Shown: piece by piece, positions 8,467 through 14,375 of the stretch
Layout: each line of letters opens with the position of its first letter
How positions within the stretch are numbered: the stretch's first letter is position 1
Source of the DNA: Candidatus Sumerlaeales bacterium
GTDB taxonomy: Bacteria; Sumerlaeota; Sumerlaeia; Sumerlaeales; Sumerlaeaceae
DNA length: 50,245 nt
Reading direction: 5' to 3'
Assembly (NCBI GenBank): GCA_038243585.1
Contig: JBBSQY010000022.1
Coordinates: 1 to 50,245 of the forward strand
Translations under genes and position numbers: made by a program
Notes under the pieces: model-generated
What the model was told of the DNA's origin: nothing
Database searches by the model: none
What the model saw: only the letters and a program-made list of their open reading frames with translations

Positions 8467-9501
8467 ATGACGAACTTCTCTACCGGTGATACCTCCCACT
8501 GCCGACCGACTCGGGCGCAAAAGGCTAGCCTGCGCGCTGCGGATGCGGATGCCGCTATGCGGGAGTGTCGGCTGTGCGGGTGGGATTGCGGAGTTGACCG
8601 CACCGGCGGGCCAGCGGGGCATTGCCGCGCCGGCGCACACCCGCTGGTTTTTCAAAACCGTCTGGAATGGGTGGGCGAGGCGCGGCTGATCCCAACGCGG
8701 CTGATTAATTTCAGCGGATGCAATTTCCGCTGTTCGTTTTGTCTGACGGGCCGAGACAGCCAGGATGCCGGGCGGGGGAAACCGCTCGACATGGCGGCGC
8801 TGGCGCGATCGCTACAGGATGACGCGCCGCATTACCGCACTGTGACGATTGAGGGGGGCGAGACCTCGATTTTCCTGCCGGACGCGCTGCGGGTGGCGGC
8901 GCTGGTGCCGGATGGGGTTCCGGTGGTATGGAAGACAAACGCATATTCGAGCGACGTCGCGCTGGCCATGCTGCGCGGTTGCATCGATGTGTTTCTTGCG
9001 GATTACAAGTTTGGCAACGACGCTTGCGCCATGGCGCTGGCGGGAGTTCCGGATTACCTGGCTCATGTGCGCAGAAATCTGCGATGGGGTCGCGGGCACA
9101 GCGACCTGATCGTGCGGCACCTGGTGATGCCGGGCCACGTGCGGTGTTGCCTGGCGCCGGTGCTGACGTGGCTTAAAGCGGAGATGCCGGAAGTGAAGCT
9201 TAGCCTGGTAAACGGATTCACACCCCTTTGGAATTCCAAACGAAACCCGGAACTCCTCAATCCATTGAGCGAGGATGAGCGACAAATGGCCCAGGATCTT
9301 GTGTCTGAGAGTGGCCTGGAGCTGGCCTCATGGGCGGTGGCCCCGGCTACGGAGAATTTCAGCTCTGCCATTGAACCGCCGGATGACAACATCTATATCG
9401 ACCGGCAGGGGCGCATCCGCGTCCCGTTTATGACGGCGGATTTGCAAAAATGTTTGAGTAAACTGGAAAACGAATTCCCTATGGCGGTTAATTTTCTATG
9501 A
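8467..9501 (+). CDS. Radical SAM Fe-S protein, PflX-like (COG1313-type)
   Basis: CNFRCSFC (CxxxCxxC); N-terminal CRLCGWDCGVDR...GHC Cys cluster; GGE; DVFLADYKFGNDACA; LIVRHLVMPGHVRCC. Its stop overlaps the next ATG (ATGA). Confidence 0.88.
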   Translation: MTNFSTGDTSHCRPTRAQKASLRAADADAAMRECRLCGWDCGVDRTGGPAGHCRAGAHPLVFQNRLEWVGEARLIPTRLINFSGCNFRCSFCLTGRDSQDAGRGKPLDMAALARSLQDDAPHYRTVTIEGGETSIFLPDALRVAALVPDGVPVVWKTNAYSSDVALAMLRGCIDVFLADYKFGNDACAMALAGVPDYLAHVRRNLRWGRGHSDLIVRHLVMPGHVRCCLAPVLTWLKAEMPEVKLSLVNGFTPLWNSKRNPELLNPLSEDERQMAQDLVSESGLELASWAVAPATENFSSAIEPPDDNIYIDRQGRIRVPFMTADLQKCLSKLENEFPMAVNFL

Positions 9502-11156
9502 GCATTCCCGCTCCAATGCCCACGCTGGAAACCGAGGCTGGCGTACCAACTCTTCCGGCAGTCATCGACCAGGAAGTGAATCTGCGGCATTCGCAAAAAG
9601 TGCTGCGCGAAATTGAGATTCTGATCCGTGCGCGCTACCCCATTATTTACATAGTTACCTATGAGGAGCAGCGGGTGGTCCGCTGGCTGACGGAGGTGTC
9701 GAAGAAGCGTAAAAAGCGGATGTTTGAGTGGTCGCTGTCAAACGGGCTGCAGGAATCGGGCACGCCACAGAATGCGCAGAAGATCAAGACCAGTCCGACG
9801 CGCGACCCGGTGCAGGCGCTGGACGAACTCATCTCTCATGTGGAGCCGGCCATCTATGTGTTCAAAGACTTACATCACTTTCTGCACCTCCGGTGCAATT
9901 CCAATTCCGCGCCGATCCGAAAGCTGCGCGAGGCGGCAATCCACATAAAGGACACCTACAAGAGCCTGATTCTGGTGTCGCCGATATTGGAAGTGCCGGC
10001 GGAGCTGGAGAAAGAAATTACTGTGATAGATTTTCCGTTGCCGGACGAGGCGGACCTGGGGCAGTTGCTTGACCGCATCGTGGATGAGGTGAAATGCCAG
10101 CCGAGCGTGACCATTGACATTCCGCCGGAAAGCAGAGAGGGTCTGTTGAAGGCGGCGCTCGGCCTGACCCTCGGTGAGGCGGAGAATGTGCTGGCGAAAA
10201 CATTGGTCAGCGACAACCGGCTATCCGACGAGGACATCGATTGCGTGTTCGCGGAGAAACGGCAGATCGTGCGGAAGGCCGGGCTGCTGGATTATTGCGA
10301 CGTGGACGTGGATTTCGAGAAGATCGGCGGCATGGACATGCTCAAGGCCTGGCTGCGAATGCGAGGTTCGGCGCTGAGCGAGCGGGCACGGGATTTCGGG
10401 TTGCCGGTACCGAGGGGGGTGCTGCTGCTTGGGGTGCAGGGTTGCGGCAAAACCATGTGCGCGAAGGCCATCAGTTCCGCCTGGAGGATGCCGCTCCTGC
10501 GCCTGGATATGGGCCGGTTGTTTGGCAGCCTGGTCGGCAGTAGCGAAGCGAACATGCGCCGCGCTCTTTCCACGGCGGAATCCATCGCGCCGGTGGTTTT
10601 ATGGCTGGATGAGATAGACAAGGCATTGGCGGGATCGCGAGGAAGCAGCGGAGACAGCGGAGTGACGGCGCGGCTATTCGGCACGTTTCTCACCTGGATG
10701 AGCGAGAAGCAATCGCCGGTTTTTGTGGTGGCGACGGCAAACGACATCAGCGCGCTGCCGCCGGAACTGCTGCGCAAGGGGCGCTTCGACGAGATCTTTT
10801 TTGTGGATCTGCCGAACCAGGTCGAGCGGCGGGAGATCATGCGGGTTCGCCTGGAATATCGCAAACGGGACCCGGAGATTTTTGCGCTGGACCGGCTTGC
10901 GGAACTGGCGGAGGGTTTCAGCGGCGCGGAGATCGAGGAGGCGGTTGTTTCCGGCCTGTACGAAGCTTTTGCCCTGGGCGAGGAACTGAACGACGACCAC
11001 ATCACAACAGCGATCAAGTCGACAGTCCCTCTCAGCAAAACCATGGAGACGGACCTGGCGCAACTGCGGGCGTGGGCGGACGGCCGAGCCCGACCGGCCA
11101 GCACCCGTCACACCATCGAGGCGGCGGAGCCTCGCCGCAGAATTGAGATTCTTTAA
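9498..11156 (+). CDS. Ycf46-like AAA+ ATPase (degenerate N-terminal AAA domain plus active C-terminal AAA domain)
   Basis: LIRARYPIIYIVTYEEQR, YVFKDLHHFL, PAELEKEITVIDFPLP, ALGLTLGEAENV, EKRQIVRK (Ycf46 hallmarks); Walker A GVQGCGKT, Walker B VLWLDEIDK, SRH ELLRKGRFDEIFFVDLP. Confidence 0.92.
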   Translation: MSIPAPMPTLETEAGVPTLPAVIDQEVNLRHSQKVLREIEILIRARYPIIYIVTYEEQRVVRWLTEVSKKRKKRMFEWSLSNGLQESGTPQNAQKIKTSPTRDPVQALDELISHVEPAIYVFKDLHHFLHLRCNSNSAPIRKLREAAIHIKDTYKSLILVSPILEVPAELEKEITVIDFPLPDEADLGQLLDRIVDEVKCQPSVTIDIPPESREGLLKAALGLTLGEAENVLAKTLVSDNRLSDEDIDCVFAEKRQIVRKAGLLDYCDVDVDFEKIGGMDMLKAWLRMRGSALSERARDFGLPVPRGVLLLGVQGCGKTMCAKAISSAWRMPLLRLDMGRLFGSLVGSSEANMRRALSTAESIAPVVLWLDEIDKALAGSRGSSGDSGVTARLFGTFLTWMSEKQSPVFVVATANDISALPPELLRKGRFDEIFFVDLPNQVERREIMRVRLEYRKRDPEIFALDRLAELAEGFSGAEIEEAVVSGLYEAFALGEELNDDHITTAIKSTVPLSKTMETDLAQLRAWADGRARPASTRHTIEAAEPRRRIEIL

Positions 11157-11174
11157 AATGAAAGGAGCAGACCA

Positions 11175-13300: not shown

Positions 13301-13313
13301 TCAGGAGAAAAGC

Positions 13314-14375
13314 ATGGATTATATCAAGTCTCTTATCCGGGTAGCGCGGGCTCAGGATGCGTCCGATCTGCACATCATCGCGGGACTGCCGCCGGCCATG
13401 CGAATTCACGGCGACATTATCATGATGGAGGCGGAGCCGCTATCGCGCGATCAGGTGACCCAGGTGACCATGAGCATACTGACGGACGCCCAGAAGCAGT
13501 ACCTGAAAGATGAGCTGGAACTGTGTTTTTCCATGGTGGATGAGCACTGCGGGCGCACCCGGGTGACGGTTTATTTTCATGCGGGGGTGCCGGAGCTGAG
13601 CCTGCGGATGTGCGCTATGGAAATCACCAATGCCGGCGATCTGGGACTCCCGCCGCTGGTGGCCGACCTGGCGGCACGGCCCAATGGCCTGGTGTTGATA
13701 ACGGGGCCGACGGGGGTGGGGAAAACGACGACGCTAAACTACATGGTGGATCTGATCAATCGCGACCGGCGGGCGAAGATCGTCATGATTGAGGATCCGG
13801 TGGAGTATATGCACAAGCCGGTGAAATCGCTGATCGTGCAGCAGGAGCTTCACACAGACACTCATTCGTTTTCCCGTGCGCTTATCCACGTGCTGCGCCA
13901 GAATCCAGACGTGATTGTAATCGGTGAGATGCGTGACCTGGAGACAATCAGCACCGCGCTGACCGCGGCGGAAACCGGTCACCTGGTGCTGGCGACGCTG
14001 CACACGCCTAATGTACTGCAAACCATGGAACGGATCATCGGCGTTTTCCCGGCGGATCAGCAGCAGCAGATCATTCTGCAACTGGCAAATTCGTTGCAGG
14101 GGGTGATCGCTCAGGACCTGATCCCCATGGCGGACGGTTCGGGGCGCGTTCTGGCGTGCGAAATCCTGTTGCCGACGCCGGCGGTGAAGAACTGCCTGCG
14201 GGATAATTCGGTCCATAAGCTGGAAAACATTCTGACGACGGGGCGCAGGGAAGGGATGATCTCCATGGATAGCAGCCTGGCGGAACTCTATCAGCGGGCG
14301 GTGATAACCTACGACGTGGCGGTTTCAAGAGCACGGGACCCGCAGTCGATCAAGCGGCTTTCGCGGGTTCAATAA
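13314..14375 (+). CDS. pilT: PilT/PilU family (type IV pilus retraction-type) ATPase
   Basis: AGGAG RBS and ATG at 13314; ASDLHI...PP.MRIHG; Walker A GPTGVGKTT; IEDPVEY; LRQNPDVIVIGEMRD; His box AAETGHLVLATLH. Confidence 0.9.
   Translation: MDYIKSLIRVARAQDASDLHIIAGLPPAMRIHGDIIMMEAEPLSRDQVTQVTMSILTDAQKQYLKDELELCFSMVDEHCGRTRVTVYFHAGVPELSLRMCAMEITNAGDLGLPPLVADLAARPNGLVLITGPTGVGKTTTLNYMVDLINRDRRAKIVMIEDPVEYMHKPVKSLIVQQELHTDTHSFSRALIHVLRQNPDVIVIGEMRDLETISTALTAAETGHLVLATLHTPNVLQTMERIIGVFPADQQQQIILQLANSLQGVIAQDLIPMADGSGRVLACEILLPTPAVKNCLRDNSVHKLENILTTGRREGMISMDSSLAELYQRAVITYDVAVSRARDPQSIKRLSRVQ

Follow-up and report, generated by a model that had tools for sequence, protein, structure and literature searches.

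A conserved seven-gene cassette of a Sumerlaeota bacterium unites a Ycf46-type AAA+ ATPase with a radical SAM enzyme, a membrane protein and a TPR–PilT pair

Introduction

Seven genes of a Candidatus Sumerlaeales bacterium are the subject of this work. They lie at positions 8467–14375 of a stretch of 50,245 nucleotides (nt) (contig JBBSQY010000022.1, assembly GCA_038243585.1), and this whole stretch is called the window in the following. The genes encode, in this order, a radical SAM enzyme, a Ycf46-type AAA+ ATPase, a DUF1257 (Ycf35-like) protein, a small DUF2997 protein, a membrane protein, a tetratricopeptide repeat (TPR) protein and a PilT-family ATPase. They form a conserved, co-inherited cassette, which is a variant of the known, uncharacterised Ycf46 module in a seven-gene reduced form. 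The cassette recurs, patchily, across hundreds of species in three phyla. Its tightest pair are the TPR protein and PilT, which always occur together. Judged from the sequences, the seven products may build one multi-protein machine at the cytoplasmic face of the inner membrane on the base of Ycf46, DUF1257 and DUF2997, a reading which is given slightly less than an even chance.

Conservation and modular forms of the cassette

In the phylum of the window the AAA+ protein was searched in 40 relatives and a DUF1257 profile was run over 75 genomes. Close orthologues of the AAA+ protein (68–70 % identity) exist only in two of the 40 relatives, G004 and G006, which belong to the family of the window and to different genera; a third genome from another family, G029, has an orthologue with 54 % identity. 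All seven genes are present in the same order in these three genomes with differing flanking genes, the membrane-protein gene of G029 being recognised as an open reading frame (ORF) with a Zn ribbon and not via tblastn. The other relatives, including both genomes of the same genus (81 and 95 % complete), possess just an AAA paralogue of about 50 % identity. Within 1.5 kb of the best AAA matches in 29 relatives, cassette genes were found in three and the AAA gene alone in 26. A DUF1257 protein at the level of the cassette (E 1e-40 or better) is encoded in five of the 75 genomes (G000, G004, G006, G029 and G041), and any match to the cassette profile in 50. The closest named protein relatives are annotated as Candidatus Sumerlaeota or candidate division BRC1.

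Outside the phylum, an alignment of four cassette AAA+ proteins led to 540 confirmed relatives in a species-representative collection. The counts for public loci given below refer to the best 80 of these 540, mostly metagenome-assembled genomes of Verrucomicrobiota and Planctomycetota, in which neighbours were called by tblastn with the window proteins and by all-against-all clustering of ORFs. Downstream sequence of 6.5 kb or more from the AAA gene is available in 49 loci, of which 32 contain DUF1257, DUF2997, TPR and PilT, seven contain TPR and PilT only (39 of 49 with this pair in total) and ten none of the four. Upstream, where 60 loci offer at least 3.5 kb, a gene for an extracytoplasmic function (ECF) sigma factor together with the radical SAM gene is present in 42, the sigma factor only in 15, the radical SAM gene only in two and neither in one. 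Both flanks are covered in 42 loci. The full form is found in 24 of them with and in two without the sigma factor; the reduced forms are sigma–AAA–TPR–PilT (7), sigma–radical SAM–AAA (4), sigma–AAA (4) and AAA alone (1). Furthermore, the cassette profiles for the TPR and the DUF1257 protein match the same seven of 301 genomes at a distance of about 2 kb from each other; these genomes are an even sample of the phylum of one Verrucomicrobiota carrier, with eight candidates per genome scored for the TPR profile.

Since this gene order recurs in other genomes, the arrangement goes beyond chance. An earlier note on this DNA, made from the letters alone, had proposed that the genes are one unit, and the order kept in relatives and public genomes as well as the cassette-specific PilT branch (see below) agree with it. 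PilT, the TPR protein and the radical SAM enzyme, which the note had joined to the Ycf46–DUF1257–DUF2997 triad, are all three conserved beside it. The notion of a seven-part system holds in so far as the seven recur as a unit; it does not hold as an indivisible one. Because reduced forms exist (AAA–TPR–PilT, or radical SAM–AAA alone), the parts are modules. These reduced forms are also what could be said for a chance packing of unrelated neighbours. With the same order in three phyla, overlapping stop and start codons and a PilT clade of its own, such a packing is extremely improbable.

Stand-alone paralogues were observed in addition. The genome of the window encodes one of the AAA+ protein (C8:59300-61114, − strand, 50 % identical, no tail) and one of the membrane-anchored DUF1257 protein (C1:178021-178518, + strand). 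Such paralogues exist in most genomes of the phylum and are 3 kb apart in G005; these dispersed copies may be a housekeeping version of the module. Where AAA matches of relatives contained an in-frame TGA, this codon proved to be the normal stop of a shorter paralogue.

The AAA+ protein and its C-terminal tail

As in the Ycf46 module, the AAA+ protein combines a long, family-specific region at the N-terminus with one classical AAA domain behind it. The latter (PF00004, 105.6 bits, residues 308–437) has an intact Walker A motif (GCGKT from residue 315), Walker B motif (DEIDK, 371) and arginine region (RKGRFD, 426), and among solved structures residues 271–483 come closest to domain D2 of p97/Cdc48 (E about 1e-51). 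The first 272 residues were modelled with 57 sequences and gave the fold of an AAA+ module with a mean predicted local distance difference test (pLDDT) score of 85.5. A Foldseek search with this model returned Pex1/Pex6, the RFC clamp loader, FtsHi and Vps4 (E 4e-8 to 1e-5) at template modelling (TM) scores of about 0.5 and 10–15 % identity. A GxxxxGK[ST] motif was not found in the consensus of the N-terminal half of the 57 sequences. The structure model thus presents the N-terminal half as a degenerate second AAA-like domain, placed in front of an ATPase domain that looks intact and p97-D2-like. With the N-terminal region as query, 3216 proteins of similar length were retrieved. The family name SpoVK/Ycf46/Vps4 used by some sources is a generic label. 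Among 81 family members the residue of pore loop 1 is Leu in 65, Phe in 11, Tyr in three and Met in two, and Leu in the window; the equivalent residue of Cdc48 is Trp in D2 and Leu in D1.

The AAA+ protein of the cassette extends about 15–20 residues past the end of the stand-alone paralogues and in most cases closes with [RK][RKE]xE[FLMI]. Of 71 judgeable loci, 47 have this tail together with the radical SAM gene, 21 have neither and three have only one of the two (68 of 71 concordant); one of the three discordant loci has a radical-SAM-like gene downstream. On an AAA tree built without the tail columns, each of the two traits changes at least 13 times, and in five independent pairs on well-supported branches the tail was concordant in 4.3 on average and never opposite. 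No association with the presence of PilT was seen, neither in the judged loci nor on the AAA tree. From these sequence comparisons the tail appears to co-vary with the radical SAM gene.

Two further observations concern the tail. A triplet of hydrophobic residue, Glu and hydrophobic residue is common to the tail (..MEF, ..IEI) and to the N-terminal motif of the TPR protein (..LEF). The TPR protein was considered as a reader of the tail and ruled out: AAA–TPR–PilT forms without the tail keep the N-terminal TPR motif. The best AAA+ relative on a plasmid is that of Treponema succinifaciens pTRESU01 (L125, 6387-8542; 46 % identity over 95 %), which ends with RKLEM; its gene lies in an annotated contractile injection system operon, just behind a gene for a different, small protein of the radical SAM activase type. 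This context poses the question whether Ycf46-type ATPases serve contractile injection systems.

The radical SAM enzyme

The first protein matches PF04055 with 33.2 bits (cut-off 29.5) and Fer4_12 with 23.1 bits. Its CX3CX2C motif and an N-terminal four-Cys motif are kept across 55 orthologues. The families of the named glycyl-radical activases PflA, PflE/PflC and NrdG gave 22.7–32.6 bits against cut-offs of 131–232, and there is no glycyl-radical enzyme among the cassette proteins. A comparison with solved structures yielded no match at E 0.01, and matches in the protein atlas fell only into clusters named radical SAM or pyruvate formate-lyase (PFL)-activase-like, uncharacterised. Among the two-flank loci the enzyme is present in all 26 with DUF1257/DUF2997 and in four of the 16 without them.

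This distribution, the tail that tracks the radical SAM gene and the conserved Gly, Lys and Cys of DUF2997 would be expected of a maturation pathway, in which the AAA+ protein holds or opens DUF2997 or DUF1257 for modification by the enzyme while the membrane protein, the TPR protein and PilT handle the product. However, the triads of cyanobacteria and IncA/C plasmids do without an adjacent radical SAM gene, radical SAM and AAA are retained in four loci where the small proteins are missing, and the cut-offs of peptide-maturase and glycyl-radical activase families are not reached, so that such a pathway is considered improbable.

DUF1257, DUF2997 and the membrane protein

The DUF1257 protein of the window scores 20.7 bits and therefore below the cut-off of 22.2, whereas 41 of 43 orthologues match PF06868 (best E 7e-9). 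With this protein just under the line and nearly all of its orthologues matching, profile hidden Markov models bear out the family identities given in the earlier note, radical SAM, AAA, DUF2997, TPR and PilT all being matched. Conserved residues of the DUF1257 protein are P9, W15, P16 and G30. A hydrophobic N-terminal segment outside the Pfam model is also conserved and is, by its sequence, likely a membrane tether. The structure model has a pLDDT of 73.8 with a poorly modelled N-terminus, and a fold search against about 48,000 chains gave a best Z of 5.5 (alpha/beta halves of the TBP-like type) with no match standing out. The DUF2997 protein is recognised with 48.1 bits by PF11211 (cut-off 24.1), and across 51 sequences its residues G22, K24, G25 and C28 show a conservation of 90 % or more.

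The fifth protein begins with a CxxC...CxxC arrangement within the first 23 residues, followed by several hydrophobic segments, from which it is predicted to be polytopic. In relatives the gap of about 1 kb between the DUF2997 and the TPR gene encodes a conserved membrane protein of about 300 amino acids (aa). A profile of 297 positions built from the ORFs of 37 relatives aligns with the window protein at positions 14–148 (30.3 bits). The matched part is the N-terminal, membrane-spanning half; the window has a short form of the family and lacks the S26-like C-terminal domain of the relatives. The Zn ribbon is common to the window, its close relatives and Planctomycetota copies. The earlier note had listed a Zn-ribbon membrane protein among the components; the ribbon proved to be lineage-specific and not family-wide. 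Tandem duplicates of the membrane-protein gene were seen in two Verrucomicrobiota loci (L058, 13995-15705; L083, 13151-14927).

The TPR protein and PilT

The TPR protein matches many TPR families, and no signal peptide was seen in its sequence. At its N-terminus M1, R3, F4 and E8 are invariant in 51 sequences, followed by a variable linker. The last protein of the cassette passes the PilT family model TIGR01420 with 400.7 bits (cut-off 319.1), and the residues of its Walker A motif, Asp box, Walker B motif and His box are invariant in 51 sequences including the window. The TPR and PilT genes were never found apart, and 30 of 48 loci show a 4-nt overlap between them. A complex prediction for the two proteins gave a score of 0.01, a value which carries no weight either way.

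The genome of the window contains 12 PilT-family genes over the TIGR01420 cut-off, of which the cassette PilT scores lowest. When 51 cassette PilTs were placed in one tree with the remaining 11 PilT-family genes of this genome, the cassette PilTs came out as a single branch with a support of 99.9 in the Shimodaira–Hasegawa-like approximate likelihood ratio test (SH-aLRT). Several of the PilT-family genes lie in tandem pairs (e.g. C8:71060-73360, C93:2014-4106 and C31:21961-24053), and about five PilB/GspE-like matches exist in addition. The term orphan, used for this PilT in the earlier note, is correct locally, with no pilus or secretion gene within about 8 kb; in the genome it is one of 12 paralogues.

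A motor with all its motifs, a full member of the PilT/PilU family, next to a conserved polytopic membrane protein could belong to a translocation or filament system. PilT would then act as in type II/IV secretion and pilus machines and move a fibre or a protein along the membrane protein or through it, and the AAA+ protein would unfold or load the cargo. ATPases of contractile injection systems are thought to unfold or load cargo, and the closest plasmid relative of the AAA+ protein is encoded within such an operon. However, pilins, PilB, PilC, PilMNOPQ, secretins and export components are found neither in the cassette nor within about 8 kb on either side nor among the conserved neighbours in the 80 loci, and no candidate cargo with a signal was identified. 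This explanation is regarded as unlikely.

Additional genes in relatives

The cassette of the window is a reduced form of a wider operon. Most relatives add an ECF sigma factor (Sigma70_r2, 51.7 bits), whose gene is located directly upstream on the same strand in 57 of 60 judgeable loci. At the cassettes of the window, G004, G006 and G029 this gene is absent, and the upstream gene on the + strand of the window matches no family. Most relatives also encode a protein with a rhomboid domain (27.8 bits against a cut-off of 22.6), a small conserved protein and a small membrane protein; a DUF3568 lipoprotein and a TPR protein of the membrane are frequent further members. The membrane protein of the relatives carries a signal-peptidase-I-like domain (25.5 bits against a cut-off of 22.9 in a Phycisphaerae copy).

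When the profiles were aligned with solved structures, the position of the catalytic Ser of GlpG was taken by Ala in the rhomboid-like consensus and that of the general-base Lys of SpsB by Gly in the peptidase-like consensus. Because of these replacements both proteins look inactive, the second catalytic residue of each being outside the alignment.

The position of the sigma factor gene, and the small conserved, rhomboid-like and signal-peptidase-like proteins in the same operon, recall signalling cascades. In such a cascade, regulated proteolysis of an anti-sigma factor would control the ECF sigma factor and the AAA+ protein would be the cytoplasmic unfoldase. This is very improbable: the cassettes of the window and its three relatives have no sigma factor, the two protease-like proteins look inactive by their sequences, and the PilT and radical SAM proteins are left unexplained.

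Relation to known systems

The three families Ycf46, Ycf35 and DUF2997 of cyanobacteria and plastids are the same that stand next to each other in the window. The slr0373-slr0374-slr0376 operon of Synechocystis with its ycf46 gene is reported as stress-induced and its function is stated to be unknown (in the excerpt of PMC7496141 relied on here), and a DUF2997-ycf35-fed7 cluster is given in a passage of PMC4284462. The comparison with cyanobacteria was made on a plasmid, whose AAA protein shares 44 % identity with the window protein across 90 % of the latter and which has annotated DUF1257 and DUF2997 genes 1.2–1.8 kb upstream of the AAA gene. Beyond the cyanobacterial triad the window possesses the radical SAM enzyme, the membrane protein, the TPR protein and PilT; furthermore, its DUF1257 protein has the hydrophobic N-terminal extension and its AAA+ protein the C-terminal tail. 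A close counterpart is the operon of Verrucomicrobiota and Planctomycetota headed by the ECF sigma factor. It has the same gene order and proteins 29–61 % identical to those of the window (tblastn), and it adds the sigma factor, the small protein, the rhomboid-like protein, the small membrane protein and the peptidase-like domain, whereas the window has the Zn ribbon instead.

With p97/Cdc48/VAT the AAA+ protein shares the D2-like ATPase domain and the order of an AAA-like first and an active second domain. It differs in a first domain without nucleotide-binding motifs, in the lack of an N domain of the p97 type and in a pore loop with mostly Leu, as in D1 and not D2 of p97, the hexamer being assumed. 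PilT and PilU retraction ATPases are matched by the cassette PilT in the family cut-off and all catalytic motifs. Unlike the PilT/PilU of type IV pili, it belongs to a separate clade, is always paired with the TPR protein and has no pilus genes at its locus.

Literature searches in open full texts (subscription journals outside the scope) returned no description of this gene set, in line with the earlier note, which knew of no described system of this composition. PADLOC-DB 2.0.0 contains no described defence system that is matched by the set of components; this is the result of the defence-system screen which the note had suggested. Single matches were a generic AAA of the IetA type, TRIP13, pVip (15 bits), a TPR protein (13.6 bits), PtuA and the P-loops of mad3/mad8, with no second component of any of these systems in the cassette. 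In IetAS/SgiAT the likeness is confined to the generic AAA domain, which matches IetA with 93.5 bits in PADLOC and reaches 82.6 bits against a cut-off of 510 in NCBIfam; the S8 protease partner is missing in the cassette. The SGI1 antitoxin is called a member of the SpoVK/Ycf46/Vps4 superfamily (PMC10954446, in part). The mention of Ycf46 for SGI1/IncC was considered as this module and rejected, since it refers, in the same part of that paper, to the SgiAT toxin-antitoxin pair (PMC10954446).

The core of AAA, DUF1257 and DUF2997 is widespread, and full-length relatives of the AAA+ protein are present on 683 plasmid and 57 phage records. Most of these plasmids (574 of 683) are typed conjugative. 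On IncA/C-type backbones, e.g. pRA1 of Aeromonas hydrophila (L127, IncA), genes for AAA, a hypothetical protein of 130 aa and DUF2997 are consecutive.

An anti-phage or inter-element conflict system on an accessory island would account for these plasmid and phage relatives, the patchy distribution with same-genus genomes devoid of the cassette, and the tRNA-Ser gene directly downstream. However, PADLOC offers just the generic IetA-like AAA and weak P-loop matches without a partner protease or effector, and no nuclease, toxin or sensor domain was found in the cassette. Furthermore, the copies of Verrucomicrobiota keep a stable neighbourhood headed by an ECF sigma factor, and in base composition the cassette does not stand out from its right flank. 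A role in conflict is thus seen as rather improbable.

Proposed mechanism

The preferred reading remains the single machine at the inner membrane. Its location would follow from the hydrophobic N-terminus of the DUF1257 protein, the polytopic fifth protein and, in relatives, the rhomboid-like and small membrane proteins. The AAA+ protein would form a hexameric two-tier ring held at the membrane via the DUF1257 and membrane proteins. Because its pore loop is mostly non-aromatic, the ring would grip or remodel a protein substrate without fast threading. The radical SAM enzyme may dock on the tail of the AAA+ protein or act on it, and would chemically modify a component or the substrate. TPR protein and PilT would be a separable second motor with the membrane protein as platform, which extracts, moves or disassembles the substrate. 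The best guess for a physiological role is an envelope or general stress response, because of the ECF sigma factor genes in relatives and the reported induction of the ycf46 operon of cyanobacteria under stress (PMC7496141, in the excerpt cited above). Membrane remodelling, secretion, antagonism or defence, the roles named in the earlier note, are for this cassette no more than proposals.

Some of the evidence speaks against one machine. Reduced forms make up 16 of the 42 two-flank loci, so the parts can work apart. The cassette is patchy, with five of 75 genomes in the phylum of the window and seven of 301 in the Verrucomicrobiota sample, a pattern that fits an accessory or conflict role as well. 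The window has no ECF sigma factor, no rhomboid-like gene and no peptidase-like domain, and arguments resting on these three parts therefore do not carry over to it directly. As to the tail, G029, L097 and L106 carry the radical SAM gene without it, its motif was defined after inspection of the data, and the sign test on only five independent pairs gives p of about 0.06–0.125 (median 0.125).

By analogy with eukaryotic endoplasmic-reticulum-associated degradation (ERAD), the machine might also dislocate membrane proteins, an idea that is doubtful. A two-tier ring of the p97 kind, with DUF1257 as its tether, would draw unwanted or damaged proteins out of the inner membrane with PilT as a second extraction motor, and the tail-docked radical SAM enzyme would mark or activate a component. 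Inactive membrane proteases would be the scaffolds, in the full form the rhomboid-like protein (compare the Derlins) and the signal-peptidase-like protein, and the window would carry a stripped-down machine.

Gene organisation and genomic surroundings

Seven co-oriented ORFs on the + strand fill 8467–14375 (Table 1). Junctions overlap at 9498 (ATGA), 11850 (GTGA) and 12512 (ATGA), and the remaining gaps measure 18, 10 and 13 nt; ORF coordinates and junction sequences thus confirm the gene arrangement of the earlier note, with its overlaps and its gaps of 10–18 nt. AGGAG-like ribosome-binding sites are situated just upstream of the DUF1257 and PilT starts. For the TPR and PilT ORFs the internal starts 12512 and 13314 were chosen, which agree with the starts of the orthologues. 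An AT-rich gap of 354 nt separates the radical SAM gene from its upstream neighbour and holds a promoter candidate, for which the number of sigma-70-like sites in the region (two observed against 2.6 expected from shuffles) is weak evidence.

Table 1 Features of the seven-gene cassette in the window
Feature	Position	Strand	Basis or remark
Candidate sigma-70-like promoter TTGCCA-17-CATAAT	8388..8416	+	consensus match only; 50 nt 5' of first gene
Radical SAM enzyme, 344 aa, pyruvate formate-lyase activase-like	8467..9501	+	CX3CX2C, N-terminal four-Cys motif
Ycf46-type AAA+ ATPase, 552 aa	9498..11156	+	putative degenerate N-terminal AAA-like domain and predicted active classical AAA domain
AAA+ N-terminal half, predicted AAA-like fold without Walker A	9498..10313	+	structure model and Foldseek
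AAA+ C-terminal tail RRRIEIL, motif [RK][RKE]xE[FLMI]	11133..11153	+	orthologue comparison
DUF1257 (Ycf35-like) protein, 149 aa	11175..11624	+	conserved hydrophobic N-terminal segment
DUF2997 small protein, 72 aa	11635..11853	+	PF11211
Membrane protein, 221 aa: N-terminal Zn ribbon, PRR motif, hydrophobic segments	11850..12515	+	
TPR protein, cytoplasmic, 262 aa	12512..13300	+	TPR families; N-terminal MTRFSNLEF at 12512-12538
PilT-family hexameric ATPase, 353 aa, cassette-specific subfamily	13314..14375	+	TIGR01420

The upstream ORF (7312-8112, + strand, 266 aa) matches no family, has a Pro/Gly/Met-rich C-terminal third (PGMMPGAPMPGAPMPGQPGG...) and is not kept upstream of the cassette in G004, G006 and G029. 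The next gene beyond it, on the other strand, belongs to the TetR family. All in all the neighbourhood is an ordinary one: the left neighbours further include superoxide dismutase, cation efflux, MqnA-type menaquinone synthesis and PhoU, the right neighbours a MacB-type ATP binding cassette (ABC) transporter, Fur and AccA. A tRNA-Ser gene (anticodon TGA) is located at 14417-14506 on the − strand, 42 nt past the stop codon of PilT, and could mark an island boundary. In an empty-site comparison with two genomes of the same genus, G001 and G002, the left flank of the cassette was found on another contig than the right one.

Significance

Ycf46 and Ycf35 count among the oldest conserved genes of cyanobacteria and plastids that still lack an explanation. 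The cassette links this Ycf46 core to understood activities, namely a PilT motor, a radical SAM enzyme and a membrane platform, and it provides handles in the tail that tracks the radical SAM gene, the invariant N-terminal motif of the TPR protein and the putative membrane tether of DUF1257. If both ATPases act in one complex, the machine would be of a kind so far undescribed. If they act apart, the natural deletion series of AAA alone, radical SAM–AAA and AAA–TPR–PilT would still reveal which parts depend on each other.

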